Shown here: positions 16,748 to 35,344 of the stretch, piece after piece
Numbering within the stretch: position 1 is the stretch's first letter
How the letters are laid out: each line of letters begins with the position of its first letter
NCBI GenBank assembly: GCA_963666275.2
Contig: CAXXOA010000001.1
Coordinates: 1,600,001 to 1,664,000 of the forward strand
Length of the DNA stretch: 64,000 nucleotides
Direction: 5' to 3'
Source of the DNA: Oceanispirochaeta sp.
GTDB lineage: Bacteria > Spirochaetota > Spirochaetia > DSM-2461
Translations under genes and position numbers: made by a program
The notes under the pieces: model-generated
The model's database searches: none
The model's input: only the letters and a program-made list of their open reading frames with translations
What the model was told of the DNA's origin: nothing

Positions 16748-16949
16748 AATTAAACCCTGGTATCGATCCACAAAGAAGATGACTGGAATAATCTTCCTGG
16801 CCAATGGATTAGGAATGAGCTGGTTCTCATTTTTTCAGCAGAATCCAAATGATCCGGTAGCAATTATCGGGATGTTGCTGGGAACAGGGATAACTCTTCT
16901 AGGCATAAAAACAGCTGGCGGCGTGATGGCTGCAAAGTTTGGATTATGA
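16740..16949 (+). CDS. Small 2-TM holin/antiholin-like protein
   Basis: N-terminal KPWYRSTK followed by two TM segments; overlaps both neighbours. Confidence 0.5.
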   Translation: MAEIKPWYRSTKKMTGIIFLANGLGMSWFSFFQQNPNDPVAIIGMLLGTGITLLGIKTAGGVMAAKFGL

Positions 16950-17212
16950 GCTGGATCACTACGGCAAAAGTAGTTTTGATTCTCAGCCTGGTAGGTATTA
17001 CTGCTTACCAGGCTTTACGGATTAAGGCTCTTAAAAAGGACAACAAACAGAAGGACAAGGATGTTGAAACAGCCGAACAAAAAAACAAAGAAGCTGTCAC
17101 TACTCACAATGAACAGCAGCGGATCAGAGAAGAAGCTCAGAAGGAGAAAAAAGAGCTTGAAAATACCGATGATGACGATCTTGCCGATCGTGCTGACAAT
17201 CTTTTTCCTTAG
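16946..17212 (+). CDS. i-spanin (Rz)-like protein
   Basis: Single N-terminal TM followed by a charged coiled coil. Confidence 0.55.
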   Translation: MSWITTAKVVLILSLVGITAYQALRIKALKKDNKQKDKDVETAEQKNKEAVTTHNEQQRIREEAQKEKKELENTDDDDLADRADNLFP

Positions 17213-17444
17213 TTGCCAGACCTCTTCTTCAGAACCTTATAAGGGAGGTTACTCTGATTTTGACATCCCGATTCAGCCGGAAATTAGATCCGTTGATTTT
17301 ATGCGACTGGAGGATAAATCAGGGTTCTTCCTGATCAACCAAGAGTACAGAAATTTAGAGCACAATATTATCGAGTACCGTCGGTATATCGGAGAGCTGG
17401 AATCACAGCTTGGAATACCTCCTGAAGGTAGGTTTAATGGATAA
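17169..17444 (+). CDS. Lipoprotein, o-spanin (Rz1)-like
   Basis: MMTILPIVLTIFFLS-C lipobox; overlaps the 3' end of the i-spanin-like gene; Pro-containing mature region. Confidence 0.55.
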   Translation: MMTILPIVLTIFFLSCQTSSSEPYKGGYSDFDIPIQPEIRSVDFMRLEDKSGFFLINQEYRNLEHNIIEYRRYIGELESQLGIPPEGRFNG

Positions 17445-17826
17445 ATATATTCTACCTCTTGCTATCCAGGCTATCGGTACTACCGGGTCGGTAATTGGTG
17501 TGGTTTGGAGGATACAGAAAGCTCAATCAGACAAACATAAAGCAGAGCTGGAAAACCTCTCTAAAAAACATGATATAGAGATGAAAGCTTTACAGGAATC
17601 CTTCAAGGAAGAGCTTATTTCAATCAGAGAAATCATGTCTGAATGGGAGAAGCAGCGGAGGAATGGAGATCACGCTCTACATGAAAGAATCAATCAAATT
17701 GAAAGTAATGCTTATAAGGAAATAAACACCCGTCTTTCTCATATAGAAGGCCAGTTGAAAGGTCTTAATAATGTCACTCGGGTGATGGAAGAATGGCTTA
17801 TTAGAAATGGAGGAAAAGTCGAATGA
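17437..17826 (+). CDS. Phage protein with TM and coiled coil (Mu gp25/DUF2730-like position)
   Basis: N-terminal TM, coiled coil ending RLSHIEGQL; precedes the gp26-like gene. Confidence 0.5.
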   Translation: MDKYILPLAIQAIGTTGSVIGVVWRIQKAQSDKHKAELENLSKKHDIEMKALQESFKEELISIREIMSEWEKQRRNGDHALHERINQIESNAYKEINTRLSHIEGQLKGLNNVTRVMEEWLIRNGGKVE

Positions 17827-18116
17827 AAACTGATGTATTCAGCCCTAACCAGAGACGGATCATCCTGGAAGCTCTCGAAGGGGATAATGACTACTCATTG
17901 AACAATGGAATCCTGCAGAAAATCCTGGTTGAATTCGGTCATGGAGTCGGCAGAGAAAAGACGGATAAAGAAATTGCCTGGCTTGAAGAAAAAGGTCTTG
18001 TAACTGTGGAAGAGCTGACCGATAGCCTTAACGTCGTAAAGTTGACATCCAAGGGTTTGGATGTAGCTCACGGGCATGACAGAATTGAAGGTGTTGAACG
18101 CCCCGGCGTGGAGTAA
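17823..18116 (+). CDS. Mu gp26-like winged-helix protein
   Basis: RRIILEAL...IAWLEEKGLV...LTSKGLDVAHG..IEGVERP pattern. Confidence 0.8.
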   Translation: MKTDVFSPNQRRIILEALEGDNDYSLNNGILQKILVEFGHGVGREKTDKEIAWLEEKGLVTVEELTDSLNVVKLTSKGLDVAHGHDRIEGVERPGVE

Positions 18117-18118
18117 AT

Positions 18119-18673
18119 ATGGGGCGAAAATCCAATATAGACAAGCTCCCGGATGAGCTGAGAGAGAAGCTCCGTGAGCTGCTTAATAATTCTTCTGTAA
18201 CCCAGGCTGAAATCGTTGAAGTCATCAATGAAAAAGCAGGGGAACCTGTCCTCAGTACCAGTTCGGTAAACCGCTATGCCCTGCGGATGCAGAAACAGAT
18301 TGAGAAGACCAAACAAGCTCGGGAAGTAGCTGAAGCCTACATGAATAAAATGGGTGGAAATACCAGAAATCAGCTTGGAAAAGTTGTGAACGAGCAGATC
18401 CGTCTGATGAGCTTTGAGCTGATGACGGACATAGAGGAATTGAAGGAGAACGGAGAGACCGATCCAGGCCTAGTAATAGACCTGATATACAAAGTCAGCC
18501 GGGGGCTCAAAGAGCTGGAACAAGCTGAAAAACTTAACGCAGAAAGGGAATCCGATATCAGAAAAGAAGCCCTGAATGAAGCTGCTGCAACGGCAGAAAA
18601 ACAGCTAAAAAAAGAAGGTCTTTCCAATGATTCGATAATCCGTATAAAGAAGGAGATTCTGGGTATATCATGA
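18119..18673 (+). CDS. Terminase small subunit (DUF3486/Mu gp27-like)
   Basis: MGRKSNIDKLP...SSVNRY pattern; upstream of the large terminase. Confidence 0.85.
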   Translation: MGRKSNIDKLPDELREKLRELLNNSSVTQAEIVEVINEKAGEPVLSTSSVNRYALRMQKQIEKTKQAREVAEAYMNKMGGNTRNQLGKVVNEQIRLMSFELMTDIEELKENGETDPGLVIDLIYKVSRGLKELEQAEKLNAERESDIRKEALNEAAATAEKQLKKEGLSNDSIIRIKKEILGIS

Positions 18674-20172
18674 CCGACCAGGAACTGCTGAATATTGAGA
18701 TCCTTTTGCCCTATCAGGCTGCATGGTCAAAAGACCACTCCAAGGTCAAAGTCTGGGAAAAATCCAGGCGTATCGGGGCCAGTTACGGAGAAGCCTGCGA
18801 GACCGTTTTGGAAGCTGCAAAATCCAAAACTGAAGGCGGCCAGGATACTTTCTATCTTTCCTACAATAAAGAGATGACCCAGCAGTTCATAAGTGACTGT
18901 GCTATGTGGGCCAAAATCCTTAATAAAGCAGCTTCGGAAATTGAAGAAGTTGTCATCAATCATGAGGATAAGGATATCACAGTTTACCGCCTGACCATGG
19001 CCTCCGGATTTCAGATTTGGGGTCTCCCGTCAGAGCCCCGTTCTCTCCGTTCAAAACAGGGCCGGGTTATTATCGATGAGGCCGCTTTTGTAGAGAATCT
19101 CAGAGAGCTTTTGAAGGCGGCTATGGCTCTTACCATGTGGGGTGGAGTTGTTCGGATCATGTCTACTCATAACGGAGAAGACAACCCCTTCAATGAGCTG
19201 ATCAAAGAGATCAAAGAGGGTAAAAAAAACTACTCTCTTCATAGAACTACAATCCAGAATGCTCTGGATAAGGGCCTTTATAAAAGGATATGCCTGGTAA
19301 GCGACAGGGAGTGGTCTGAAGAAGCTGAAAAGGAGTGGCTTGATGAGCTGCTTGATGACTACGGAGACGGAGCAGCAGAGGAGTTGTACTGCATCCCCAC
19401 CAAAGGCGGAACCAGGTATATTTCCCGCTCACTGGTGGAATCCTGTATGGACAAGGATATTCCGGTTCTAAGCTACGAATGCACTGATGATTTTACCTTT
19501 GAATCAGACTTTGTTAGAGAAAGAAAAACCAATGATTGGCTGGAGGACAATCTCCTTCCTATCCTGAAGAACCTGCCCAATGATCCGGGCTTCATCGGGA
19601 TGGACTTTGCAAGGAGCGGAGACCTTTCTGAAATAGCTCTTTTTAATGAAACAGAAGGCCTCCGTTTGAGAGCTATCTGCTACCTTGAATTGAGGAATGT
19701 TCCCTTCTCCCAGCAGTTCCAGATTTTCTGCTATGTATGGGACAAGCATCCCCGGTTATTTGCAGCATCTCTTGATGCCAGGGGAAACGGCCAACACCTG
19801 GCGGAGCTTGCCGCTCAGAAGTACGGCCCGGCCTATGTGAATCAGGTGATGATCTCCAGGGCTTTTTATATGGAGTACATGCCAAAGTACAAAGCCAAGC
19901 TGGAAGACAGGGAGATGACCCTGCCCGGCTCTCCCGACATTATCGATGATCACAGAACAGTTGTTCTGGATAAGGGTGTTCCCACCATCTCGGAGAGGAC
20001 TTCCCAGGGCGGCGACAAGAATAAAAAGAGGCATGGAGACTCTGTCATTGCCGGTGTAATGGCCAACCATGCTTACGAGAATGACGACAGCTCTCACCAG
20101 AGCTATAAATACGAAGCGGTGAAAGCTTCAAACCCCTGGAGAGGAGGAACCAGCCGTGGCCGATGGAGATAA
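18670..20172 (+). CDS. Terminase large subunit (Mu gp28-like)
   Basis: LLPYQ, EKSRRIG, IIDEAAF, STHNG, GMDFARSGD and RHGD motifs. Confidence 0.95.
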   Translation: MTDQELLNIEILLPYQAAWSKDHSKVKVWEKSRRIGASYGEACETVLEAAKSKTEGGQDTFYLSYNKEMTQQFISDCAMWAKILNKAASEIEEVVINHEDKDITVYRLTMASGFQIWGLPSEPRSLRSKQGRVIIDEAAFVENLRELLKAAMALTMWGGVVRIMSTHNGEDNPFNELIKEIKEGKKNYSLHRTTIQNALDKGLYKRICLVSDREWSEEAEKEWLDELLDDYGDGAAEELYCIPTKGGTRYISRSLVESCMDKDIPVLSYECTDDFTFESDFVRERKTNDWLEDNLLPILKNLPNDPGFIGMDFARSGDLSEIALFNETEGLRLRAICYLELRNVPFSQQFQIFCYVWDKHPRLFAASLDARGNGQHLAELAAQKYGPAYVNQVMISRAFYMEYMPKYKAKLEDREMTLPGSPDIIDDHRTVVLDKGVPTISERTSQGGDKNKKRHGDSVIAGVMANHAYENDDSSHQSYKYEAVKASNPWRGGTSRGRWR

Positions 20173-21670
20173 AACCAAGAAGAAAGATCTGAAAAATGAG
20201 GTAGCAGCAGCTCAAACTATCGGTGTTCGCCAGGCTATCCAGTGGCCGGATATAACCTCCGGACTGGATCCGGTCAGACTGGCTGAAATTCTTAGGGCTG
20301 CCAGAGAAGGCAAAGCAGATGAATACCTGACTTTAGCTGAAGAGATTGAAGAGAGGGACCTTCACTACAGGTCTGTACTATCCACAAGGAAGCAGGCTGT
20401 TGAGGGTCTTGTTCCTACTATCATACCGGCTAGTGAAGAGAAAAAGGATCTGGATCTGGCCAAAGCTGTAGAAACGGATATTCTGGGCAGAGACGATTTT
20501 CCCGACCTAATAAAAGATGCCCTTGACGCTCTTGGCAAAGGGTATTCGGTTCATGAAATTCTCTGGAATACGAAAAGAACTCCCTGGAAACCCGATCGGA
20601 TCCTTTTCAGGGATCCCCGATGGTTTGAATATGATGAGCTTACAGGTAAAAAGCTCCATATGAAAGAAGATTATGGAACGACCCTTATTCCCCTGGCGGA
20701 AAGGAAGTTTATAGTCCATGAACCGCACCTGAAAACAGGGCTGCCGATACGGGGAGGATTAGCTCTCCCGATGGCTCTCTATTTTCTGATCAAATACTAC
20801 GATATTACAGCCTGGACCGCATTTATAGACCGCTACGGCCTGCCGATCCGGGTGGGAAAGTACGGTAGGAACGCTTCCGATAAAGACATTACCACTCTGA
20901 AGAGTGCCATAGCTCATTTGGGTGAAGATGTGGGAGCTGTTATTCCTGATTCAATGCTGATTGATATTATTGAGTCAAAAACATCCGGAAAAATTGAGCT
21001 GTATAAAGAGATGGCCGACTGGGTGGACAAGCAGGTAAGCAAGCTGGTACTGGGTCAAACCATGACAGCCGATGACGGGTCCAGCAGGAGTCAGGCGGAA
21101 GTTCATGACGATGTCCGCCAGGATATCCTGGAAGCCGATGCCAGGCAGCTGGAAAAAACCCTTAACCGGGATCTGATCAGGCCTTATATTGATTTGAACT
21201 GGGGTCCTCAGGAAAAATACCCAAGATTAAGAATCCCCTGTCCTGATACTGACGATATTACCGCTTGGGTGGATAATATTGAAAAGCTTGTTCCTCTCGG
21301 TTTGACTGTTAAGGCTGATGAAGTCAGAAGTAAATTGGGATTGTCCAGACCAGATGAAGGAGATGAGATCCTTCAACAAGCTCCAGCGACAGTTCCTGCT
21401 GAAAAGGATATGGGAACCGCTCTCAATGCCGAGCAGGATAAGGATATATCTGAGCTGGATCTTCTGCAGGAGGACAGTGATTATTCCGAGCTGTCGGATG
21501 ACATATTAAAAGCTGTTAACAAGCTGGCCGGGAAGTGCAGCACTCTGGAAGAGTTTCGCGACCGGTTGCCCGAGCTGCTCTCCCTATGGGATATGGAAAA
21601 AGCCGCCGACATCCTGACTCTCGAAACCTGGAAAGCCAGAGCCTTGGGAGATGCTGATTTTGCCGACTGA
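20156..21670 (+). CDS. Portal protein (DUF935/Mu gp29-like)
   Basis: LDALGKGYS, YGLPIRVGKY and SKLVLGQTMT..GS..QAEVH motifs. Confidence 0.95.
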   Translation: MADGDKTKKKDLKNEVAAAQTIGVRQAIQWPDITSGLDPVRLAEILRAAREGKADEYLTLAEEIEERDLHYRSVLSTRKQAVEGLVPTIIPASEEKKDLDLAKAVETDILGRDDFPDLIKDALDALGKGYSVHEILWNTKRTPWKPDRILFRDPRWFEYDELTGKKLHMKEDYGTTLIPLAERKFIVHEPHLKTGLPIRGGLALPMALYFLIKYYDITAWTAFIDRYGLPIRVGKYGRNASDKDITTLKSAIAHLGEDVGAVIPDSMLIDIIESKTSGKIELYKEMADWVDKQVSKLVLGQTMTADDGSSRSQAEVHDDVRQDILEADARQLEKTLNRDLIRPYIDLNWGPQEKYPRLRIPCPDTDDITAWVDNIEKLVPLGLTVKADEVRSKLGLSRPDEGDEILQQAPATVPAEKDMGTALNAEQDKDISELDLLQEDSDYSELSDDILKAVNKLAGKCSTLEEFRDRLPELLSLWDMEKAADILTLETWKARALGDADFAD

Positions 21671-23084
21671 TACCATTGTTCCGGAAGAAGCTCTGAATTT
21701 CCTGAGAGCAAAGCAGCTGAAACCGGCTTTCAGCTATGAAGATGTCTGGCTGGAAGAACACGCCAATAATTTTACCGTTGCGAAAGCCATGCAGTTGGAT
21801 GTTCTGCAGGACTTTAAGGATGCCATAGACCTGGCAATTGAGAATGGCCAAACTCTGGATCAATTCCAAAAAGAGATAACTCCTACCCTGATGAGAAAAG
21901 GCTGGTGGGGTAAAAAAACAATGGTAGACCCGGCTGACGGCAAGGAAAAGGCTGTCCGTCTGGGTTCTGACCGCCGGTTGAAAACTATTTACAATGTAAA
22001 TACCCGCCAAGCATACAATGCCGGAAGATGGGAACGTGGCCAGCGATCCGCAGCGCATACCCATATAATGTACCTGGTCGGCCCCAGTACACACCACAGG
22101 AAAGAGCATTTGTCTTGGAATGGTTTGGTTCTCCCCAAGGATCATCCTTTTTGGAATACCCATACCCCAATGAACGGATGGGGCTGCAAATGTTATTTCA
22201 GATATTTAACAAAGCAGAGGCTGGAGAAGCTTCGGAATGAGGGAATGCCGGATAATACGCATATTGTGGAAGGAAGGCCTTCCGGAACCATTCAAATTAA
22301 GGAAAATGCTCAGGATATTCAGTACAGGCAGTATATCAATAAGCGGTCCGGAAGAGTTTATACAGCTCCTGCAGGTATTGATCCGGGGTTTGAATGGAAT
22401 CCTGGATCCGCTAGAGGTACAGCAGTTTCTTCTTCCCTGCAGGGTAAGGTAAAATCTTTACAGCAAAGCTACCCGGCAACTCCGAAAGGGGTTCCCGTAT
22501 CAGAAGCTTTTTCAAAGATCACTCCCACCTATAAAACCAGTGTGAACCGGGCTCTTACAGCTATTAATAAGGTTCATGGAGACGGCAATCTCCCGAAGAT
22601 CCCAATTCAAGCAAGCAGGTCAAAGCAGTTTTATGGGGCTTTTGAATACAGTAGATACTCACGGGAAGCATCTGCCATTAAACTGGCCAGTAAAGATCAT
22701 CCGGAATTGACGCTGATACATGAAATAGGTCATTTTCTGGATAACAACGGGCTCCCAGGTAAAGGGTTCTGTTCGGAATTGAACCTTTCGGAGATTATAC
22801 CTTTGATGAAGGCCATTGATAATTCCAACGAAATTCAAGTTCTTAAAGCACTGCCATCCAATAAGAGTATTAGCTATCTGCTGAACCCTGCCGAACAGTT
22901 TGCCAGGGCTTACGCCCAGTACATTGCCTGGAAAACGCAGGATCCAACTTTAATTTTGCAGCTGAAGGGTATACAATTGAATTCAGGGAATCCTGTAAAC
23001 CGGTGCAAGCAATGGAATGAAGAAAACTTCCTTCCCATTGCCGCCGAGTTTGATATTCTGTTTAAAAAGATGGGATGGTTATGA
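21651..23084 (+). CDS. MuF (gp30) head protein with C-terminal HExxH metallopeptidase-like extension
   Basis: FTVAKAM..DVL, RRLKTIY..N and PMNGWGCKC MuF motifs; C-terminal IHEIGH...EQFARAYAQY. Confidence 0.85.
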   Translation: MLILPTDTIVPEEALNFLRAKQLKPAFSYEDVWLEEHANNFTVAKAMQLDVLQDFKDAIDLAIENGQTLDQFQKEITPTLMRKGWWGKKTMVDPADGKEKAVRLGSDRRLKTIYNVNTRQAYNAGRWERGQRSAAHTHIMYLVGPSTHHRKEHLSWNGLVLPKDHPFWNTHTPMNGWGCKCYFRYLTKQRLEKLRNEGMPDNTHIVEGRPSGTIQIKENAQDIQYRQYINKRSGRVYTAPAGIDPGFEWNPGSARGTAVSSSLQGKVKSLQQSYPATPKGVPVSEAFSKITPTYKTSVNRALTAINKVHGDGNLPKIPIQASRSKQFYGAFEYSRYSREASAIKLASKDHPELTLIHEIGHFLDNNGLPGKGFCSELNLSEIIPLMKAIDNSNEIQVLKALPSNKSISYLLNPAEQFARAYAQYIAWKTQDPTLILQLKGIQLNSGNPVNRCKQWNEENFLPIAAEFDILFKKMGWL

Positions 23085-23365
23085 TACTGAAAGGAACAGC
23101 AGCAGACGGAACTCCATACTCAATAGACTCAGACGCTATTACCCAGGAAGATATTGATTCTTTCGGTAAAGAAAATGATTGTGTCTGTTGTGTCAGATGT
23201 CTTATACCTGTTACTGATGAAACAAAACAGTATGAAGATCCGGAAAGTCCCGGCATGATAGCAGCCTATCCTTTCGACGAAGAAAATGAGCTATATCACC
23301 CCTATGGAAAAGATGGTTGGCCAGTTGAAAAAGTTCTCATCGATAAAAATGGAAGCCTTGTCTAA
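23081..23365 (+). CDS. Small acidic protein, candidate immunity partner of the MuF extension
   Basis: ATGA overlap with the MuF stop; very acidic; CVCCVRC. Confidence 0.5.
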   Translation: MILKGTAADGTPYSIDSDAITQEDIDSFGKENDCVCCVRCLIPVTDETKQYEDPESPGMIAAYPFDEENELYHPYGKDGWPVEKVLIDKNGSLV

Positions 23366-23407
23366 TTTACTTTACAAATACCCGCCTTTGTTGTAATTAA
23401 CTTAACT

Positions 23408-23857
23408 TCAATTCATCAACTCAGAATCTTCTTTAAACCTTCTGACTTCATCTTCAATATTTTCTTTTAGGTGATGCATTGAAACAAAGTTTTCAATGAA
23501 ATAAATTAAGCAAAAAATCAGATATACAGAAAAAAGAATATAAGTATCAAATTTGATGATTTTCCATTCAAACTGATATTGATAGTCTTTTAGCAGAAAC
23601 AGCACAGTCGAGATAGCAAATAAGACGATAAAAGTAATCTGAATGGAATGGAGCTGAGGACGGAATCTCTGAACAAATTTCTCATTTGGGATATCTGCAA
23701 ATGAAAAAGACATTATTTGACTTAATCCCAACGAGAACATGATTCCCAAAATAGTAAAAATTACAGTTAATGATTGTTCTGTAAAACAAACAGGGACATA
23801 GGATAGAAAAAAAGAGATTAATAATATTATTGAACTTCTAATTAACCACCTTGCCAT
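23408..23857 (-). CDS. 4-TM membrane protein, RexB-like candidate
   Basis: About 150 aa with four TM segments; overlaps the upstream 308-aa gene. Confidence 0.5.
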   Translation of the reverse strand: MARWLIRSSIILLISFFLSYVPVCFTEQSLTVIFTILGIMFSLGLSQIMSFSFADIPNEKFVQRFRPQLHSIQITFIVLFAISTVLFLLKDYQYQFEWKIIKFDTYILFSVYLIFCLIYFIENFVSMHHLKENIEDEVRRFKEDSELMN

Positions 23858-24764
23858 TATCAATATCCTTTAAGATCTTTCTCATCTCTGTTTCAATTTC
23901 CGGTTCATTGAAACTTTTCCCTATATGTTCAAACTGACGTTCTATTTTAATCAGATAATCAGTTCCTTTAAGGGTTTTAGCACCTTTCCCTTTAATTATA
24001 ACATCTTCACTATCGACAATTCTAAGCAAGGTGTCTAGGGCCTTCCCATCCTTTTTCTTGAGTTCTTTTTTGTTAATTTTCAGATGAATAGTAGCTGTGA
24101 GTACATCTTCAAGCTCTAGAGCTTTCAGATCCTTAATATCTTTCAGCATATTTTGAAGGACTGCCCTTTTTACCTGTAGAATCTTTGTTTCTTCTTTTGA
24201 TAATTTATTCTGGAAATATCCCTCTGCGATTTGAATTTTCTGAATGTCTCCCATTGGGATAGTGTTCTCTGTTTTATGTTTTGGAGTTATTGAACACTCA
24301 TATTGTCCTTTTTTATTCTCCCTGAGGAGCCAATTAAAATAAGTTTCCAATGCTTTCCTATTATTTTTTGCTGATGTCATGATCAGATAACCTTCATATA
24401 TGCAGAAGAATATATAATCTTTGATAGAACCTGCAGATTCCTCATCAGATAATTTTACCATTTCATTCATGGAAACAGTCTTCTGGGTCAGATGAATATT
24501 TGATACGTTTGTACCTTCTCCCGGTCGCAGGCGAACAAAAGAACCAAACAAAAATCCATTAGAATGGTTGAAATATGGAATAAAGTCACCTTCATCCTGA
24601 TTGCTGATTACACCATCTTCCTGATGGTACTCCATAAATCGGTCCTTGATGGTTAATGAACTGTTCAGAATATTAAAAATCAATTTCGCAAACTTCGGTT
24701 CTTTTACCTGAGTTGTCCTGGATTCAATTTCATGGACCTGAAGTGTTAACTTTCTCTTTGCCAT
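23838..24764 (-). CDS. Soluble 308-aa cargo protein, RexA-like candidate
   Basis: AT-rich; order of short motifs resembles lambda RexA as recalled (see findings). Confidence 0.45.
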   Translation of the reverse strand: MAKRKLTLQVHEIESRTTQVKEPKFAKLIFNILNSSLTIKDRFMEYHQEDGVISNQDEGDFIPYFNHSNGFLFGSFVRLRPGEGTNVSNIHLTQKTVSMNEMVKLSDEESAGSIKDYIFFCIYEGYLIMTSAKNNRKALETYFNWLLRENKKGQYECSITPKHKTENTIPMGDIQKIQIAEGYFQNKLSKEETKILQVKRAVLQNMLKDIKDLKALELEDVLTATIHLKINKKELKKKDGKALDTLLRIVDSEDVIIKGKGAKTLKGTDYLIKIERQFEHIGKSFNEPEIETEMRKILKDIDNGKVVN

Positions 24765-24802
24765 TAATGATTCTCCTCACCTTTAATTTGATTGCTATAA
24801 AT

Positions 24803-25702
24803 TCAATTCGTCACAGACTCTGTGTTGTCTCTAATTTGTTTTATATGAGTTCTGATAGAATCCAGTTTCTTATAGTCAGGAAATAACTGAGAAGATTCTT
24901 CAGGGGCTGAGAGAGATGGATGAAACTCTGTACCTTTATTAATCATCTCTGATATTTTTTCTATGGAGTACATCAATCTCTTTATATATTCAGGATCTTT
25001 TTCAATACCGTTATTATCTATGAGATAATTTGCTTCAGCTTCAATCAGCTGATCTAAGAGCTTTTTCTGAGCAGCAACCAAATCTTTAACAGACTCATTT
25101 TTCATTTCAAGATTTTTGATTTGGCCAGTAAGATGATCGCCTTCAAGTTTCTTTTTTCTGATAACACAGCCTGACCAAATTAATCCAGCTATTAGTTTTA
25201 ATGCTGCAGAAGTTCCAAATGTAAGAATTAACCAATTTGTACCAAGGTCTACTCCAGTAAATTTCACTGAAGGAGTTCCTTTTAACCCAGAAAGCGTCTG
25301 GTCAAATATTTTTCCATATTCTGTAACCTCATTTACGAAACCATGGTAATCGTGAAAATCTGGAAGGAGAATAAAAAGAGAGTTTTCATCAGCTTCAGTA
25401 CTAACGGCTTTGAGAACTTTCAGGACACTATTCATTTCAGCTCTAAGTTGTCCCATGAAAGCCTCAAACTGTTTTGCATCATTTTGGGCAAGAGTTATAG
25501 ATTCACCATGAAAGTCCTCAGGAAGATATTTGCGAATGTTAACTAACTTTTCTGTAAAATGAGGCATCTCTGATATTACCCGTAATGTTTTATTTAACGA
25601 ACTAACCTTCTGGTATATCTTTGTCGAACCTTGAACTGTTGGTGTTAAACTCAGTTTTGCATTAGAGGAAGAAATAATTTGGATTTGCTGGTTTATTCGC
25701 AT
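24803..25702 (-). CDS. Hypothetical cargo protein (299 aa)
   Basis: Long AT-rich ORF co-oriented with the repressor; central hydrophobic stretch. Confidence 0.75.
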   Translation of the reverse strand: MRINQQIQIISSSNAKLSLTPTVQGSTKIYQKVSSLNKTLRVISEMPHFTEKLVNIRKYLPEDFHGESITLAQNDAKQFEAFMGQLRAEMNSVLKVLKAVSTEADENSLFILLPDFHDYHGFVNEVTEYGKIFDQTLSGLKGTPSVKFTGVDLGTNWLILTFGTSAALKLIAGLIWSGCVIRKKKLEGDHLTGQIKNLEMKNESVKDLVAAQKKLLDQLIEAEANYLIDNNGIEKDPEYIKRLMYSIEKISEMINKGTEFHPSLSAPEESSQLFPDYKKLDSIRTHIKQIRDNTESVTN

Positions 25703-25742
25703 AAGTTTTGGTCCTATTGAGATACATTATTTTTTAAAAAGT

Positions 25743-26006
25743 TCAGCCTCTTTTCTTAGAATACGCAGCTTCTACCTTTTTCCGGCCAGCATCTGTAATC
25801 TGGATGACTTTTGACTTATCGTCGTACTCCATATATCCCTGGGCTATGTAGGACGTGGAGTTTGTTCTGTTGCTGATTACATTATTCGTCAGCTGTGGGT
25901 CAATGCTGTCAAAAAGGGGTTCCATCTCTTCAGTATTGAATGAATCCTTTTTATAAAGGAAGTTCAAAAAGAAATCTTCATAATACGCCTGATTGTTAAA
26001 TGCCAT
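25743..26006 (-). CDS. Small winged-helix-like protein
   Basis: AGGAG SD; ends with a GYMEY....IQITDAGRK wing motif. Confidence 0.6.
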   Translation of the reverse strand: MAFNNQAYYEDFFLNFLYKKDSFNTEEMEPLFDSIDPQLTNNVISNRTNSTSYIAQGYMEYDDKSKVIQITDAGRKKVEAAYSKKRG

Positions 26007-26084
26007 ATTTTATTCTCCTTTTGATCCATCATATGCGGGTCTTATTTCTTCCATGAAATTAACCCCATCTAATAGATTCTTATT

Positions 26085-26264
26085 CTAAGAATCATTCCCC
26101 AACCGGTTTAAAATCAGCTGAGAAAAGTTTTCCAAATACTCCAGCCTTTTTACATCTTCATAATTGCTTTCGTACTCTTCTGTTTTATCAACTATATCCA
26201 GGGACAAACGGAGCAGCTCAATTTTCCGCCAGGTCTTATCATCGATGTCATCTATTGCACTCAT
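26085..26264 (-). CDS. 59-aa acidic protein missed by the ORF track
   Basis: MSAIDDIDDKTWRKIELLRLSLDIV...LGNDS*; TAATG coupling to the upstream gene; GAGGG SD. Confidence 0.6.
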   Translation of the reverse strand: MSAIDDIDDKTWRKIELLRLSLDIVDKTEEYESNYEDVKRLEYLENFSQLILNRLGNDS

Positions 26265-26674
26265 TAGTATCCCTCATTCCAGCCAGGTTTCTCTACCAAT
26301 AACTCTTTTGAAATATTATCATTATCCCAAGATGGTCTTTCACACAGGGTCATATTTCTAAAATTACCCTGCTGCTTATGGCCGTCATCATCAAACCAGA
26401 CACAGAGAGACTCACGATTTCCGCTATCAATCACTGTCATATCAGTCAATGAAGGGATGAAGCTTACAACAGTCCCAGGTCTGAGAGCATGGTTTTTAAA
26501 ACCTGATAAAGCAGGGGTCAATTCATTCAGAACTTTGAAAGGAAACTCAGCTTCTTTATACCGTTTCTTTTTATCTAGCCAGCAGCATAAGAAAAGCCCG
26601 CCATCCTCTTCAGCAAGCACAGCCATTTCCGGACCGCCTGAATTGAGCCTGACAATACTATCTATACCAAACAT
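26264..26674 (-). CDS. Tandem DUF2158 (YodC-like) domain protein
   Basis: Two repeats of the VxLxSGGPxMxV...CxW(F/L)D pattern. Confidence 0.75.
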   Translation of the reverse strand: MFGIDSIVRLNSGGPEMAVLAEEDGGLFLCCWLDKKKRYKEAEFPFKVLNELTPALSGFKNHALRPGTVVSFIPSLTDMTVIDSGNRESLCVWFDDDGHKQQGNFRNMTLCERPSWDNDNISKELLVEKPGWNEGY

Positions 26675-26709
26675 GTTTCCCTCCGATTTAATCTATGCTG
26701 TTCCATTTC

Positions 26710-27111
26710 TCAGAAACTAACCGGGTCCAGGATTTCTGATCCACCCTCACTCCAGAATATTTCTAATTTCCCATCAGGGCGTATATAAAATGTTTCATCA
26801 TCGTCGCCAACTCTTTTGAAATGATTCTCATCAAGAAACTCGATTTCTTCCTTTTTCCATTGAAACCATAGTGGGTACGTTGTAGCTAAATAACTCTTAT
26901 CAGCTGGAATGTAATGAATGAATCTGCCAGAACCATATTGCTCTGGAGAAACCCAAAGGTTGTCTACATCGGTTATATCTATATCGATGTCTCCATATTG
27001 GCCACCTTCATGGCCAGGACCTTTATTCTGAAGTTCTGTAAAGGTTATATCCTGGGCAAAAGCGGCAACAATGAAAAATGACAATATGAGGCTGCTGATA
27101 ACTTTCTTCAC
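26710..27111 (-). CDS. Exported protein next to the repressor (possible superinfection exclusion)
   Basis: Signal peptide MKKVISSLILSFFIVAAFA; AAGGAG SD. Confidence 0.65.
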   Translation of the reverse strand: MKKVISSLILSFFIVAAFAQDITFTELQNKGPGHEGGQYGDIDIDITDVDNLWVSPEQYGSGRFIHYIPADKSYLATTYPLWFQWKKEEIEFLDENHFKRVGDDDETFYIRPDGKLEIFWSEGGSEILDPVSF

Positions 27112-27122
27112 TCAATACTCCT

Positions 27123-27806
27123 TTAATACGGATGCCTGTGAATCCATCCGATTACCTTCCCTTCAACCCGTACCACATCAGAATCCGCATCCACTACTTT
27201 TTTTTCATAGCTGGGATTTTCCGAAATAATGGTGAGTTTTCTCTCAATCGGGTCAAACTCCAAACGCTTTACAAATAAATCCGAACCGATGCTGATTACG
27301 TAGATCCCGTCGGCCCGGAGTTCTCCCTGGGAAAAGATGACATAGTCCCCATCGAATATTTCCACCCCTGTCATTGAATCTCCCCGGACCTCTACAACTT
27401 TAATCGAGTGCCTGGGGTATGGGTGTATGATCTTATCTAAAATGGGGATCGTTACATCTGAGCTGTACTCTTCAATATAGTCCTGCCCAGCCCCGGCAGA
27501 TATTTTTTGTTCCAGCACCGGAACCATGACAACATCATCCCGATCTGAAAGTACAATTTCTTTTTTCTCTGTTTGAATACTAACTGCACGATTATTATCT
27601 GAAAGCAACATTTTCCCTTGGCCTGTTATCAACCAATGCAGATTTATGCCGATATGAGATATTTTTTCTTTTATCTCATCTGGAACAGAACGCTTCTCTG
27701 TCTCATAACCAGCATATGTAGACTGCCCGAGGCCTAACTTTGCTGCAAAGTCAGACTGATTTAGCTCAAAATGAGATCTTATTTCTTTTAAACGACGACC
27801 AATCAT
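27123..27806 (-). CDS. CI/LexA-type prophage repressor (XRE HTH plus S24 peptidase)
   Basis: N-terminal HTH; SAGAG cleavage site; GDSM catalytic Ser and VKRL catalytic Lys. Confidence 0.95.
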   Translation of the reverse strand: MIGRRLKEIRSHFELNQSDFAAKLGLGQSTYAGYETEKRSVPDEIKEKISHIGINLHWLITGQGKMLLSDNNRAVSIQTEKKEIVLSDRDDVVMVPVLEQKISAGAGQDYIEEYSSDVTIPILDKIIHPYPRHSIKVVEVRGDSMTGVEIFDGDYVIFSQGELRADGIYVISIGSDLFVKRLEFDPIERKLTIISENPSYEKKVVDADSDVVRVEGKVIGWIHRHPY

Positions 27807-27836
27807 TAAAAATATGCCACCATGCGATTATTATTG

Positions 27837-27865
27837 TTGACTTATAACGCGTATTGCGATATTCT
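27837..27865 (+). promoter_or_regulatory. Early lytic sigma70 promoter with candidate operators
   Basis: TTGACT-N17-TATTCT; TGCGAT boxes at 27823 and 27855. Confidence 0.7.
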
Positions 27866-27960
27866 TTAATCAGGTTAAGAAATTAACCACAAAACCCCCA
27901 AAAAATGGGAAGCGGTTACGCCCTGCAAAGCTAATCCACTTCCCGTATAGGAGTATTACT

Positions 27961-28050
27961 ATGTTACAGCGGAGAAAAACAGACCGCAAGTGCAAAACAG
28001 CATTTTTTTTTGGAAGGCGGAAAAAACTCCTTCGGCAGGAGGATTGCTGA
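27961..28050 (+). CDS. 29-aa basic peptide, first early ORF
   Basis: AGGAG SD; MLQRRKTDRKCKTAFFFGRRKKLLRQEDC*; TGATG overlap with the next gene. Confidence 0.45.
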   Translation: MLQRRKTDRKCKTAFFFGRRKKLLRQEDC

Positions 28051-28283
28051 TGAAGTTTGACAGAAAAGAAGTTGAGAAATTATGCAAATCCTGTGTTAAC
28101 GACCCTATGGATCCAGACATCGACAACGATTGCGATGATTGCATAAATGGCTGTGAATACCTGGAAACCAGGATCCACCAGTTGGAAAGGGAAAATCAGG
28201 AGCTTGTTGATCAAATTGCAGAATCCAGAAAAGGATTCATCAATGCGGAAACAAGAAATGCCAGGGAGGTTTTCTGTGGATAA
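28050..28283 (+). CDS. Early Cys-rich and coiled-coil protein
   Basis: GGAGG SD; CKSC...CDDC...C. Confidence 0.6.
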   Translation: MKFDRKEVEKLCKSCVNDPMDPDIDNDCDDCINGCEYLETRIHQLERENQELVDQIAESRKGFINAETRNAREVFCG

Positions 28284-28671
28284 TAAAAAGATTTGTGCCT
28301 GTTGCGGAAAGCCGGCGGAAGGCCCCGGCAGTGTTGAGATCGGCGTCAAAGGTAATTTCACCCCTTTTTGCTCCTTAAGCTGTTTTAATAAACATATGAA
28401 AGAGAATGCAAAACTGGTCAAAACTTTGGCTGACAGGAAGGAGCTCCTTGCCAGAAAAAGAAATTATAAGAAAGAACGAATCAAACAAGTTCTTTCCCTG
28501 GATAAGGTAGAGACCAGTGATGATTTCTATTTCCTCTATGAAAGCCTTACTGCAAAACAGAGGGAAACATTAGCCACGAAGTTTTTCAGCCATTTGATTG
28601 CTAAAAATAACTGTGTTGTTTCGGACATTCTTAATGAAGTTGAATCAATAGCCCCTAGGGTAAAAGAGTAA
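28276..28671 (+). CDS. Early zinc-finger protein
   Basis: GGAGG SD before GTG; CACCG...FCSLSC treble-clef pattern. Confidence 0.6.
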   Translation: MDNKKICACCGKPAEGPGSVEIGVKGNFTPFCSLSCFNKHMKENAKLVKTLADRKELLARKRNYKKERIKQVLSLDKVETSDDFYFLYESLTAKQRETLATKFFSHLIAKNNCVVSDILNEVESIAPRVKE

Positions 28672-28673
28672 GT

Positions 28674-28889
28674 ATGCAGGAACCGAAGCATTTGAGGAGA
28701 GGACGAAACGACTATGCCGCTGTTTGCCAGGGAAAGGAAGCTTTTGAAACCTACCGGCTGGCAGAGAAAGTGAAAAAGTCCATGTGCCGGAGAACAACCG
28801 GCGGACTTGACGTTTATCACTGTCCCCATTGCCGGAAGTTCCATATCGGACGGAATAAGTTCAAAGGGAAATATTATGGTTGTAAATAA
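28674..28889 (+). CDS. Small phage zinc-binding protein
   Basis: C.GK...YHCPHCRKFHIG motif. Confidence 0.6.
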   Translation: MQEPKHLRRGRNDYAAVCQGKEAFETYRLAEKVKKSMCRRTTGGLDVYHCPHCRKFHIGRNKFKGKYYGCK

Positions 28890-29106
28890 TATCGTTATAC
28901 GAAATAGAAAAAGTTCAAGATACGAGCTTGCCATGCAGATCCGCCAGTGTCTGACAGACGGAAGGGTCTGGACCGTGGGAGAAGTGGCCAGGGAGCTGGG
29001 ATCCAGTTATCAGCAGATCCAGAATGCTCTGACCTCTCTGACCAACCTGGAGCCGACCCTGGCGGAAGAAGATGACGGAGCCGTATTCATGGTGATAGGA
29101 GGATAA
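28876..29106 (+). CDS. Small HTH protein
   Basis: WTVGEVARELGSSYQQI. Confidence 0.6.
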   Translation: MVVNNIVIRNRKSSRYELAMQIRQCLTDGRVWTVGEVARELGSSYQQIQNALTSLTNLEPTLAEEDDGAVFMVIGG

Positions 29107-29129
29107 AACTGATGGGAGGGGTAGTAGCA

Positions 29130-29360
29130 ATGGAAGCAAAACCGACTAGAGATGTAAACACTGCCGTAAAAATCCAGTGCGTTATGACCAGAATGGGAAT
29201 AAGCCAGACCCAGCTGGCAAGGAATATCGGGGCGACCCTGCCCATGGTAAACCAGGTTATCTGGGGAACCAAGCAGAGCCGCCGGGTACAGAGTGATATT
29301 GCCAGATCCTTGGGCTTCAAGTCCTGGAACGAACTGAAAAAGCATAAGGAGGTTGTATGA
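29130..29360 (+). CDS. Ner/Cro-like HTH regulator
   Basis: GISQTQLARNIG.T...VNQVIWG...IARSLG. Confidence 0.75.
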   Translation: MEAKPTRDVNTAVKIQCVMTRMGISQTQLARNIGATLPMVNQVIWGTKQSRRVQSDIARSLGFKSWNELKKHKEVV

Positions 29361-29647
29361 TCAATGTAGATCCTGAAATAATCGCTGCCAAGGTGACCGA
29401 TCAACTTGGAAATCCCAGCCAAAGCAAAGACCTGGAACTCCTTGCTCTGGACATTGCAAACGCCGCTTCTGTGGAGTTCCTTCAATGGCGGGGCTATGAA
29501 GGGTTGTGGGAGGTAGTCTCAATAATACGGCTTTCTCCAAAGCAGCGGCATCAACTGAAAGAGCACATCAAGCTTATCAAAATTGAGGATATTCTCAGAG
29601 CCAAGACAGCCAAAGTCGGGCCTATGCAGCAGGAGATGTTTGTATGA
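29357..29647 (+). CDS. Hypothetical early protein
   Basis: GGAGG SD; ATGA overlaps at both ends. Confidence 0.6.
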   Translation: MINVDPEIIAAKVTDQLGNPSQSKDLELLALDIANAASVEFLQWRGYEGLWEVVSIIRLSPKQRHQLKEHIKLIKIEDILRAKTAKVGPMQQEMFV

Positions 29648-29940
29648 GTACCTACACCAACAATGCACAACAGAGGATATGTCGTCTGGTGGAAGAGCTG
29701 GCCGGGAATGAAGACAAAGGGCTGAGCCTGACCGAACTGGCCGAGAAACTCGGGATTTCCACCAGTGCGGTATTCCGGGACTTGAAGAACCTGGAAGAAG
29801 CCGAATGGGCCAGACAGATCGGATCCAACTGGGCGATGGCCCCCCGCGCCGCCGTACCGGCAGTGAAAATCAGAAGAAACCTGGACTCCCTGTTAGGGAA
29901 AGTCAACAAAATCAACAAAGATTACCTGGGAGGTGAATGA
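29644..29940 (+). CDS. IclR-like HTH protein of transposable phages
   Basis: AQQRICRLVE.LAGNE..GLS..ELA..LG.STS.VFRDL.NL. Confidence 0.75.
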   Translation: MSTYTNNAQQRICRLVEELAGNEDKGLSLTELAEKLGISTSAVFRDLKNLEEAEWARQIGSNWAMAPRAAVPAVKIRRNLDSLLGKVNKINKDYLGGE

Positions 29941-30893
29941 TTATGGGAAAAAAGAAGATTGCTCCTGAAAACAACATTGAAGTGACAGAGGTGGATATTC
30001 CTGCAGCACCGACCCCTGAAGAGCTGGATATGCTTCAGGTTCATCTGGCGGATGTTGATTTGAAATTTGGAGCTGGTAAGGATTACAACAGAGAGAGAAT
30101 TGAGGGAGAAATCTGTACTTATGCTGAGCAGTATAAGAAATCAATTCTTGAAACAGGAAAACGGTTAATCCTCCTGAAAGAGCATGAAGGGCATGGTGGT
30201 TTTCTAGAGAGTCTGAAACGCCTTGACATTGATCCAAGAACTGCCCAGAACATGATGAGCGTGGCTCGTAAGTTTATTGATGAATCAGGAAATGCGAAAG
30301 CGCTTGCGTATTTGCCTCCAACCAAGCTTTACATGCTGGCATCATTGGAAGATGAAGAATTAGATGCTCTTGAAGAAGGAGAAGGTGTTGCGGGTCTAAC
30401 GATTGAGGACGCTGAAAAGTTGTCTTCCAGAGCTCTGAAAAAGAAACTTCAGGAAGTAAGAGCTGAGAAAAAGAGGCTTGAAGAACAGCATCAGCAGGAA
30501 ATTGAGATCAAGGACCAGCTTCTGGAGGATAAGAATAAGAAAATTGATGAGCTGGACGGGAAGCTCCGAATCAGCACTGATCCTTCCAGGTGGAACGAAA
30601 AAGCCGAAGAATACCTGGACCGTCTTCACAGGATTATCCCACAGTCCAGCAGGATTATGGGAGAGATGGCGGAAATTATCGAAGGGATCCAGGCAGTTGA
30701 GACAAAAGACTGGGAACAGTCCCAGAGGATCGTGCTGGAACAGTTCCGGTTCACCTTTGATCAGATCAACGATGACCTGGATAAAATCGACAACATGCTT
30801 CGGTTTGCCGCCCCTGAAGGAAACTCTGTTTTCCACTCTATGAATGCCCTGAGACCTTTATCGACCTCTGAGGAGGAGGCTCTTGATGTTTGA
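29937..30893 (+). CDS. DUF3102-domain protein
   Basis: ETGKRLILLKEHEGHG.F...RTAQNMM..ARKF; precedes the transposase. Confidence 0.8.
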   Translation: MIMGKKKIAPENNIEVTEVDIPAAPTPEELDMLQVHLADVDLKFGAGKDYNRERIEGEICTYAEQYKKSILETGKRLILLKEHEGHGGFLESLKRLDIDPRTAQNMMSVARKFIDESGNAKALAYLPPTKLYMLASLEDEELDALEEGEGVAGLTIEDAEKLSSRALKKKLQEVRAEKKRLEEQHQQEIEIKDQLLEDKNKKIDELDGKLRISTDPSRWNEKAEEYLDRLHRIIPQSSRIMGEMAEIIEGIQAVETKDWEQSQRIVLEQFRFTFDQINDDLDKIDNMLRFAAPEGNSVFHSMNALRPLSTSEEEALDV

Positions 30894-32583
30894 AGAATAT
30901 ATTCCTGACCTGCAGGGCGCTGGTCGGGGTGACAGGGGTCAAATCATCGATAACATCACCAACCTTTACGGCTGTTCCAAAGATAAGGTCTACCGGGAAT
31001 TGAAAAAAGCCGGATGGACATCCGGACGGAAACGCCGGAGCGATGCGGGAGAGGTTACTGTTTCCAATGAAGCCCTGGAAGCCTTAGGGGCGCGTCTGCT
31101 GGTTGGTGTGCGGAAAAATGGGAAGTGTACAACCGATATTCCTACGGCCAGGCATGAACTGGAGTTGTCCGGGTATCATTTCGGCGTGAGCAATGGACGG
31201 CTGGCAAGCTTGCTCAAAGAGCGTCATCTGGACCTTAAAACCCAGCTGATTCCTACTCCCCATACCAGGTTGAAGTCGCTGCATCCCAACCATGTTCACC
31301 AGGTGGATCCATCCATGTGTCTACTTTACTATCTTCCCAGAGGCGGCCAGAAGATTATCGAGGATGATGAAGCTTACAAAAATAAGCCTTTCCTGGAAGG
31401 GAAAGCCCACTTGAAGATTTGGAGGTATGTGCTGACCGACCACTACTCCTCCAGTATCTGTGTCCGCTATTTCCAGAGAGCCGGTGAGCGGATGGATACC
31501 CTGTGGGAGTTCCTGCTTTATGCCTGGAGTGTTAAGGACGATCCTGCCTATTGTTTTCATGGTGTACCATCGATCCTTCTGATGGACAAAGGATCTGCCA
31601 ACCTGGGAGGCGGTGTTGTAAACGGTCTTAACTCTCTGAGAGTCAGACAGCTTACCCATGCCCCCGGAAAGCCCAGGGTAAAAGGCCAGGTTGAGAATGC
31701 CAATAATCTGGTGGAAAAGCTTTTTGAAAGCCGGTTGAAAACCGACCCGGTGAAGGGCGTTGAAGAGCTGAATGTAAGAGCCAGTTGGTGGTGTGCTTCC
31801 TACAATGCCAATTTGATCGACAGTTATGATTCTACCCTTCGCAGGTCAAAGACATCCCGTCTTGAGCTGTGGAGCCGGATTACCACCAGCCAGCTGAAGG
31901 AACTTCCGGAAGAGGCCAAAGGCCTGCTGGTTGCCAATAGCGAGACCCGTAAGGTAGCCGGGGATCTGACAGTCAGCTTTGTACACCCCAAGTTGAAAGA
32001 GAGCCGGTTTTACCATGTGGGTGGTCTGGAAGGGATCCGGCCCGGAATGAAAGTACAAGTTCAGCCTGTCTTGATGGATTCAGAAGGAACAGTCCGGGTG
32101 GCCTGGAAGTATCAGGGCGAAGAGTTTGTCCATGAAGTTGAACCTATCCTGATGGATGAAGCTGGTTTCTGGGCTGATGCCGCTGTGATCGGAGAGTCCT
32201 ACAGGTCCCAGCCTCATACGGTTGTGGACAAGGCCAATCAGAGGCTGGCAGAGGTTATCGGTGATGAAAAGAAGCCCTTTGCCCATCTGAACAATGGCCA
32301 GGGGCTGAAATCCATCAGCGGTATGACCAGGACGGAATCCAGTGTGATCCATATGCCCAGAACCGGGAATGTGATCGATCCATCCAAAGCTTCCGCAGCG
32401 GTTATCAACTATGTGGAAGCGGCGAACCGACTAAAGAAAAAAATGTCCCACTGGGACAAAGCCTATTTGAAGGTGATCAGGGATAACTTCCCTAATGGGG
32501 TCCCCGAGCGGGACCTGGATTCACTTGCTGAGGCGTTAAGCGGCCTGGGAGGGGCAGATGATATTAAGGAGTGCATTGGATAG
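30886..32583 (+). CDS. DDE transposase (MuA analogue, B3/BcepMu-type)
   Basis: HPNHVHQVDPS (D), LMDKGSAN (D), PRVKGQVENAN (E). Confidence 0.92.
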   Translation: MFEEYIPDLQGAGRGDRGQIIDNITNLYGCSKDKVYRELKKAGWTSGRKRRSDAGEVTVSNEALEALGARLLVGVRKNGKCTTDIPTARHELELSGYHFGVSNGRLASLLKERHLDLKTQLIPTPHTRLKSLHPNHVHQVDPSMCLLYYLPRGGQKIIEDDEAYKNKPFLEGKAHLKIWRYVLTDHYSSSICVRYFQRAGERMDTLWEFLLYAWSVKDDPAYCFHGVPSILLMDKGSANLGGGVVNGLNSLRVRQLTHAPGKPRVKGQVENANNLVEKLFESRLKTDPVKGVEELNVRASWWCASYNANLIDSYDSTLRRSKTSRLELWSRITTSQLKELPEEAKGLLVANSETRKVAGDLTVSFVHPKLKESRFYHVGGLEGIRPGMKVQVQPVLMDSEGTVRVAWKYQGEEFVHEVEPILMDEAGFWADAAVIGESYRSQPHTVVDKANQRLAEVIGDEKKPFAHLNNGQGLKSISGMTRTESSVIHMPRTGNVIDPSKASAAVINYVEAANRLKKKMSHWDKAYLKVIRDNFPNGVPERDLDSLAEALSGLGGADDIKECIG

Positions 32584-33661
32584 AGCCGGAGCGACCCAGA
32601 GTGAGCTTGCCGGATATTTGGGGCTTGCCAAGAGTACGGTCAGCCAGATTGTGAACAGGGGGCAATTCCCCGTAGGCCGGGAGCAGAAAACCCGGCAGCA
32701 GATCAATGATTTTTTACAGGACAGGGGTGTTACCCCTTCGGGGCTCTGGAAAAACGCGGAGCCCGATACAGAAGAAGCCGAAGAGATCGGCCAGGAGTGT
32801 GTGATGATAACAGCAGAAGCAAAAAGACAGTTCAAGCTTTTTAGAGATCCTTTTCTGGATGATGTAAACGGAAAAGAGGATGTGTATATGAGCCGGGATT
32901 CCCGTTTTGCCGCCGAATATATGTACACCACCGCCAAACTGGGGGGAATGCTGGCAGTGATCGGAGAGTCCGGATCGGGTAAAACAACCCTGCGGCGCCT
33001 TCTGATCGACCGGATCAATACGGAAGACCTTAAGATCAAAGTCATCTTCCCCAGGATCATCGACAAGGAGCGTTTAACCGCCACCAGCATTTGTGATGCC
33101 ATTATCCGGGACTGTTCCACCGAAAGACCCCGGAGAACCCTGGAAGCTAAGGCCCACCAGATTGAACGGATCCTGACCGATTCACTGAAATCCGGGTGGA
33201 AACATGTTCTGATGATTGAAGAAGCCCATGACCTGACCATACAGACCCTGAAATATCTGAAACGGTTTTGGGAGCTGGAAGCCGGGTTTGATAAGCTCCT
33301 TTCTATCATCCTAATAGCTCAGCCCGAGCTGAAGGAAAAGCTGGACGAGAGCCGGAACTACGAAGCCAGGGAAATTATAAGAAGGATGGAAGTGGCTGAG
33401 ATCCGCGCCCTGGATACAGAGGCGGAGCTGAAAGGATACCTGGCCCTGAAATTCAAGCGGATCAATTTGAATGTTGAATCCCTCATGGCTCAAGATTCCT
33501 ATAAAGCCATTCTGGATAAGATGTCCCGCAAAACCAGGGGCGGCGGAGAGATCTGTCTGGCCTACCCCCTGACGGTGAACAACATGATCAAACGGGCCAT
33601 GAACACGGCTGCCGACATAGGGCAGGAACAGATCACGGCAGAAACTATCCAGGCCGTATAA
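32558..33661 (+). CDS. Transposition AAA+ ATPase (MuB/ExeA-like) with N-terminal HTH
   Basis: GESGSGKTT, IEEAHDL and YPLTVNN motifs. Confidence 0.92.
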   Translation: MILRSALDRAGATQSELAGYLGLAKSTVSQIVNRGQFPVGREQKTRQQINDFLQDRGVTPSGLWKNAEPDTEEAEEIGQECVMITAEAKRQFKLFRDPFLDDVNGKEDVYMSRDSRFAAEYMYTTAKLGGMLAVIGESGSGKTTLRRLLIDRINTEDLKIKVIFPRIIDKERLTATSICDAIIRDCSTERPRRTLEAKAHQIERILTDSLKSGWKHVLMIEEAHDLTIQTLKYLKRFWELEAGFDKLLSIILIAQPELKEKLDESRNYEAREIIRRMEVAEIRALDTEAELKGYLALKFKRINLNVESLMAQDSYKAILDKMSRKTRGGGEICLAYPLTVNNMIKRAMNTAADIGQEQITAETIQAV

Positions 33662-33680
33662 ACACAAACCGGGAGGGGTT

Positions 33681-33821
33681 ATGGAACAAATACTTACAAA
33701 AGCGGCTTTGGCAGTGATTGTTCTGCTGCTTATTGCCTTTTCATACGGAGCAGTTCGATTGAACTTGAATAGAGGGAACGGCGGGTTTCCTGTTACCCGC
33801 AGACGGAGGGGAAAAAAATGA
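33681..33821 (+). CDS. 46-aa single-TM peptide missed by the ORF track
   Basis: GGAGGGG SD; MEQILTKAALAVIVLLLIAFSYGAV...RRRRGKK*; ATGA overlap with the next gene. Confidence 0.55.
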   Translation: MEQILTKAALAVIVLLLIAFSYGAVRLNLNRGNGGFPVTRRRRGKK

Positions 33822-34432
33822 TAAAAATAGAAGGAACCGAGTATATGAAAAATCCCAGGGGAGACCTTGTCCCTTTGGAAAATGTCAAACCTGTGGATGT
33901 CCTGAGGGACCAGACGGTAAAGAGTATCATCAGTAAAGCCATGGAGATGTCGGGGATACTGGGAGAGTTCAAAAAGGATGTCTTTGAAGAGGCTGAAGAA
34001 TTTGTAAACTTGAGCTTTGAAGAGTACGGTCAAAAGTACGGCGGGAAAAAAGGGAATATTACCCTGACCAGCTATGACGGAGAGTTTAAGGTATCTATTG
34101 AAATGCAGGATGTTATTTCCTTTGATGAGCAGCTGCAGGTTGCCAAGTCCCTAATTAATCAGTGCATTCATAAATGGTCCGGCGGAGCCAATGCCAACCT
34201 GCGGGTACTGGTGAACGATGCCTTTCAGGTGGATAAGGCGGGAAATGTAAATACACGCCGGATTCTGGAACTCCGTAGATTGGAGATTGAAGATGATGAT
34301 TGGCAGGCTGCCATGGATGCCATCTCTTCTTCCATCAAAGTCCTTATGAGCCGCCGGTATATGAGAATCTACCGGAAAAACTCACAGGGAGACGGATACT
34401 CCATGATCCCCCTGGATTTCGCGTCTATATGA
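33818..34432 (+). CDS. DUF3164 family protein
   Basis: GG.KGNITLTSYDG, FDEQLQVAK.LI..C and AFQVDK.G motifs. Confidence 0.88.
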   Translation: MIKIEGTEYMKNPRGDLVPLENVKPVDVLRDQTVKSIISKAMEMSGILGEFKKDVFEEAEEFVNLSFEEYGQKYGGKKGNITLTSYDGEFKVSIEMQDVISFDEQLQVAKSLINQCIHKWSGGANANLRVLVNDAFQVDKAGNVNTRRILELRRLEIEDDDWQAAMDAISSSIKVLMSRRYMRIYRKNSQGDGYSMIPLDFASI

Positions 34433-35337: not shown

Positions 35338-35344
35338 GTGAACC

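Follow-up and report, generated by a model that had tools for sequence, protein, structure and literature searches.

We analysed a 64,000-nt window of the genome of the spirochaete Oceanispirochaeta sp. (contig CAXXOA010000001.1, positions 1,600,001 to 1,664,000), in which a Mu-like prophage carries two overlapping genes, here termed A and B. In its predicted structure and its genomic context, this pair has the marks of a RexAB-type system, and it resembles RexAB on every point that could be tested. Its assignment as a divergent RexAB-type pair with a putative exclusion function, which widens a known kind of system and does not constitute a new one, is well supported. The two genes have the following positions:

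23408 to 23857, reverse strand: gene B, 149 amino acids with four predicted membrane helices (from hydropathy, an AlphaFold2 model, and the position of the homologues)
23838 to 24764, reverse strand: gene A, 308 amino acids, starting with the ATG at 24764 (from the list of open reading frames (ORFs), an AlphaFold2 model, and a homologue search)

The ORF list gave gene B a TTG start at 23863 and thus 151 amino acids. However, the ATG at 23857 is preceded by a purine-rich stretch resembling a ribosome-binding site and agrees with the starts of the homologues, and therefore a length of 149 amino acids was adopted. The end of gene A overlaps gene B by 20 nt. The GC contents are 34.8% for gene A and 29.6% for gene B, compared to 45-52% for the core genes of the prophage. 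Given the local composition, a frame would stay open over 308 codons with a probability of 6e-12 per start, and over 149 codons with a probability of 4e-6 per start. Because its highest 19-residue hydropathy is only 0.91, the product of gene A is considered to be soluble, while the product of gene B exhibits four hydropathy peaks (1.9-2.4), starting near residues 8, 30, 71, and 107. A preliminary description of this locus, made from the sequence by eye, had proposed a soluble 308-aa ORF overlapping an ORF of about 150 aa with four transmembrane segments, both AT-rich, and was borne out in all of these respects.

The AlphaFold2 model of A had a pLDDT of 87.5 and a pTM of 0.85, and lambda RexA (8TWQ) was the top match in the fold searches performed with it. 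This result upholds the structural likeness to RexA that had been proposed, with A predicted to adopt the split two-domain fold of the RexA/RdgC type. Based on this model and on the analogy to RexA, A is likely a DNA-binding sensor; its conserved basic positions (R42, R78, K115, K229, K232, R248, and K260) are only suggestive of DNA binding. The monomer model of B (pLDDT 88.3) contained helices at residues 2-20, 27-49, 59-91, and 105-148 and a hairpin at 95-104, and, by analogy, B is likely a membrane effector. RdgC has the fold predicted for A and is described to occur in the early-left regions of lambdoid phages (PMC12315714), which would suit a pair that has no defence role and consists of an RdgC-like DNA-handling protein and an unrelated membrane passenger. 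We regard this explanation as extremely improbable.

One search yielded 11 close entries to A, and a second search yielded at least 187 homologues as cluster representatives (50% identity clusters, E<=0.001). The alignment of A comprised 132 near-full-length homologues; fragments were omitted, as was one long fused form. At one locus (L004, 429-1625), the frame of the A homologue is open for about 95 codons further upstream and contains a stretch that, by eye, resembles Sel1 repeats, a possible fusion.

Outside the window, an A homologue was present at 25 distinct loci (after removal of one false match and three duplicates), and co-occurrence of the two genes was analyzed at these loci. Four loci ended too soon after A for B to be scored. 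In all 21 loci with enough room, A was followed by a B homologue, the start of which was located between -32 and +4 nt from the end of A, in agreement with the expectation that the pair recurs across genomes. One B gene was cut by a contig end. Sixteen of the 21 B homologues had not been part of the training set of the B profile, and they matched it with E values from 1e-9 to 4e-57, with 0.18 for the best other frame. The pairwise identities of A and B correlated (Spearman 0.81, 19 loci), and the trees of A and B had their main groups in common, with weak support.

That A never occurred without B where this could be tested would also be expected if A alone were harmful. The roles would then be reversed, with A as a toxic or antiviral component that B keeps inactive at the membrane until its release upon infection, as is described for Butters gp30/gp31, a pair with a like anatomy (PMC7542560, PMC12894663). 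However, B is the effector in four of the five Rex-type systems described in PMC12894663, and no sequence link of the pair to gp30 or gp31 was detected. We thus consider a reversal of roles quite unlikely.

A repressor-like gene was located upstream of the pair on the same strand in 12 of the 25 loci. The clearest case is the E. coli phage PhiR68_2, which has the gene order P, O, cII, and cro, followed by cI, an A homologue (341 aa), and a B homologue (149 aa), such that the pair occupies the slot of lambda rexA-rexB behind cI. This version was found in 42 of 5,426 E. coli genomes, and all 42 matches covered at least 80% of the pair. In the Acinetobacter phage TCUAN1, the pair lies one gene behind the repressor; its B homologue (L017, 4914-5369) comprises 151 aa, of which the GenBank annotation covers only the last 72. 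Within the phylum of the host, the distribution is patchy, with no pair in 60 relatives and pairs in 4 of 400 other genomes. Five loci belong to an AT-rich family of this phylum and had no repressor within 1.5 kb: three adjoin an integrase (two of them among prophage genes), and the other two lie beside or inside restriction-modification clusters.

Several loci contain further genes next to the pair. In L002 (7463-8891), the pair is followed by a 359-aa ORF without a Pfam match and by an ORF with an ASCH domain, perhaps a second accessory system. In L007 (4735-5214), B is followed by a second membrane protein with four predicted helices, which has 159 aa and is unrelated to B. In L037 (509-12767), the pair is flanked by two pieces with matches to type IIG restriction-modification domains and may have inserted into a gene of this type; RES, Mrr+M78, and AIPR genes belong to the same cluster.

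The surroundings of the pair in the window comprise the following features:

16946 to 49840, no strand assigned: Mu-like (transposable) prophage carrying the pair, defined by PHROG matches, ends approximate
24803 to 27111, reverse strand: five accessory ORFs between the repressor and gene A, of 299, 87, 59, 136 (tandem DUF2158), and 133 aa
27123 to 27806, reverse strand: CI-like repressor with a helix-turn-helix (HTH) domain and an S24 peptidase domain (PF00717 1.8e-17, PF12844 5.8e-8, phrog_4 5.4e-40)

The prophage is the only one of its kind that was found in the genome (G000), and its PHROG matches include an Rz-like spanin, terminases, a Mu-type portal, MuF, transposase A and transposition protein B, a protease, capsid, sheath, tape measure, and baseplate. 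The host had three matches over the cut-off to FlaA, a mark of spirochaetes that was found in none of 14 control genomes. The suggested setting of a Mu-like prophage in a spirochaete was thus confirmed. The layout of the region from 16946 to 36301 is unusual in that the immunity, early, and transposase block lies between MuF and the head protease, such that the genes for lysis, terminase, and portal are oriented head-on towards the repressor strand. In L002, L004, L006, and L007, repressor and pair are co-directional with the late genes. MuF (21651-23084) is extended at its C-terminus by about 170 aa, which include a HEIGH motif that by eye resembles a metallopeptidase site; a weak LPD1 match was also obtained.

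The CI-like repressor is divergent from the early genes and is the possible head of a transcript that carries the pair. The intergenic gaps from the repressor to gene B range from -20 to 78 nt, which would fit one transcript. The 78-nt gap contains a hairpin at 26000-26090 (-19.9 kcal/mol, without a U run) that could break such a transcript. The preliminary description had placed the pair downstream of the repressor and in its operon. The common strand and the small gaps would be compatible with an operon, but the pair does not follow immediately, as 2.4 kb with the five ORFs, as well as the hairpin, lie between repressor and A. These five ORFs are not part of the pair, and none of them was detected when the other fetched loci were searched with tblastn. 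The 299-aa ORF just upstream of A (24803-25702) is AT-rich, has no family match, and may be a separate gene with an accessory or defence role; the 136-aa ORF (26264-26674) contains two DUF2158 repeats.

A single contig of run X4, from a second study, covers 21153-29749 in the order of the window and represents a sister prophage. It had no listed difference over the pair (one contig, depth 4.3) and retained the 299-aa ORF, whereas the regions 26007-26093, 26251-27104, and 27582-27871 were replaced. The last of these, which contains the N-terminal part of the repressor and its upstream region, was swapped for 316 other letters, likely a switch of immunity type. These data bear on the possibility that the pair mainly tunes the lysis-lysogeny switch of its own phage, such that lytic growth would be locked in through the binding of A to DNA and to the repressor, B would damp this effect, and exclusion would be a side effect or absent. 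Lambda RexA is described to behave in this way, with exclusion as a possible by-product (PMC11077077), and the 12 upstream repressors are in accordance with it. However, the sister prophage kept the pair although part of the repressor had been exchanged, and homologous pairs beside integrases or in restriction-modification clusters had no repressor within 1.5 kb. This role as the main one therefore appears rather unlikely.

Comparison of the sequences did not yield a link to known families. Searches of A and B against Pfam, NCBIfam, PADLOC, and PHROGs yielded no match to a Rex model, with the Pfam models of RexA (PF15969) and RexB searched at E<=1; the PADLOC check of the proposed Rex pair was thus negative for Rex as well as for Kiwa models. 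The Kiwa models also did not match any of the 132 A homologues at E<=0.01, and KwaB was absent among the matches listed in the fold searches with the A model. As far as can be judged from sequence, the pair is outside the Pfam RexA, RexB, DUF4747, and DUF6731 families. The ESM Atlas placed A beside DUF6731, DUF4747, and RexA clusters (0.93-0.95), but the recognition value was under the threshold of the tool and the placement is therefore weak. The preliminary description had also proposed short segments shared with RexA. These are indeed present in GenBank RexA in the same order (at 73, 93, 133, and 248, corresponding to 96, 119, 158, and 286 in A); however, the best alignment of A with lambda RexA was no better than those of shuffled sequences, 161 of 500 of which scored as high. 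Taken together, the Rex-like interpretation is supported, while the sequence argument alone was not significant.

The following observations, like this alignment, weigh against a RexAB-type assignment. None of the 132 A homologues matched the Rex, DUF4747 (PF15931), or DUF6731 (PF20505) models at E<=0.01. Profile comparisons and single-sequence hhalign of A with RexA yielded nothing, B had no hidden Markov model (HMM) or profile match to RexB, and neither A with CarolAnn gp44/Butters gp30 nor B with gp43/gp31 had an HMM match. The whole-chain fit of the A model on RexA was poor (TM 0.31, rmsd 17.6 A), which might be due to the two domains being set at a different angle, and VIA aligned half of A. 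The fold is common to RdgC and kinetochore proteins and hence is no proof of function, and the fold matches of the B model were generic helical bundles only. The 21 loci are not independent events, because many are kin or originate from related samples; in L022, B is short, and in L012, A contains a stop. For 13 of the 25 loci no repressor was found upstream: in six the flank was shorter than 800 nt, in five the sequence was read up to 1.5 kb, one had an ORF that looked HTH-like by eye, and one had 1.4 kb and no match. In the window itself, five ORFs and the hairpin separate the repressor from A.

In spite of these points, we consider it probable that the pair is a phage-exclusion system of the RexAB type, in which A senses the phage and B damages the inner membrane and halts the infected cell. 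By analogy to lambda, P. putida RexABpp, CarolAnn, and Sbash, the lysogen would express both proteins. Dimers of A may clamp DNA without sequence preference, again by analogy, and would be triggered by DNA-protein complexes of the invading phage or by a phage protein. Activated A would then open an oligomeric channel of B, and the resulting loss of the membrane potential would lead to growth arrest and aborted infection. A Kiwa-like mechanism would differ in that B would anchor A dimers at the membrane and sense the injection, and A would hold on to the incoming phage DNA and bring its replication to a halt, with the cell surviving. Kiwa, too, is described to pair a membrane protein that has four helices with a dimer that binds DNA, and many basic residues are conserved in A; however, the Rossmann-like fold with DUF4868 of KwaB and the six-stranded barrel of KwaA (bioRxiv 10.1101/2023.02.26.530102) contrast with the RexA-like model of A and the B model with only a hairpin, and the PADLOC Kiwa models did not match. 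A mechanism of this type is therefore very unlikely. On these likelihoods, it is quite probable that the pair has some anti-phage role.

The family to which the pair belongs comprises at least 187 clusters, escapes Pfam, NCBIfam, and PADLOC, and extends to spirochaetes and Mu-like phages; it would be an addition to the described RexAB-like systems. In a literature search that was short on subscription journals and supplements, no published Rex-like pair in a spirochaete or a transposable phage was found. We tentatively raise the idea, at present rather doubtful, of a distinct, unannotated Rex branch in the form of a portable defence cassette that has its own family of membrane effectors and, starting from lambdoid phages of E. 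coli and Acinetobacter, has reached the transposable phages and restriction islands of spirochaetes. On this reading, the cassette in a Mu-like phage would need a different trigger or a shut-off, because replicative transposition generates branched DNA-protein complexes of the kind proposed to trigger RexA. The version of the pair that occurs in a lambdoid phage of E. coli and in 42 E. coli genomes is immediately testable.

Kiwa resembles the window pair in its four-helix membrane protein and DNA-binding dimer. The membrane gene comes first in Kiwa. The described folds differ (bioRxiv 10.1101/2023.02.26.530102). Like the pair, lambda RexA/RexB (8TWQ; PMC11077077) combines a soluble protein of the RexA fold, which is predicted for A, with a downstream membrane protein of four helices and about 145 aa, both encoded on the repressor strand, and the PhiR68_2 homologue lies in the same slot behind cI. 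However, the identities are 8-13%, RexA has 279 aa compared to 308 aa for A, and the rex genes are separated by a 15-nt gap, whereas the window pair has a 20-nt overlap and lies five genes from the repressor in a Mu-like spirochaete prophage. CarolAnn gp44/gp43, Sbash gp30/gp31, and Butters gp30/gp31 (DUF4747-type; PMC6426606, PMC7542560) are also described as soluble and four-helix pairs in temperate phages, and the CarolAnn pair overlaps and follows the repressor (PMC6426606), but their proteins are larger (370-403 and 178-187 aa; PMC6426606, PMC7542560). DUF4747/CarolAnn operons are listed as immune operons in bacterial genomes (PMC13373217), and thus Rex-like pairs outside lambdoid phages are already known. 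Only five RexAB-like systems are described in PMC12894663 (January 2026), which gives the Rex trigger as unknown. Among them, RexABpp of the P. putida prophage P1 (PP_5643/PP_5644), compared by its description, is like the window pair in having a RexA-fold protein of similar size, a four-helix partner without detectable RexB homology, and other genes between the CI-like gene and the pair. RexApp was linked to RexA by HHpred (98%), while single-sequence hhalign with A yielded no such link; RexABpp was assigned on evidence similar to ours, and its defence function was demonstrated (PMC12894663).
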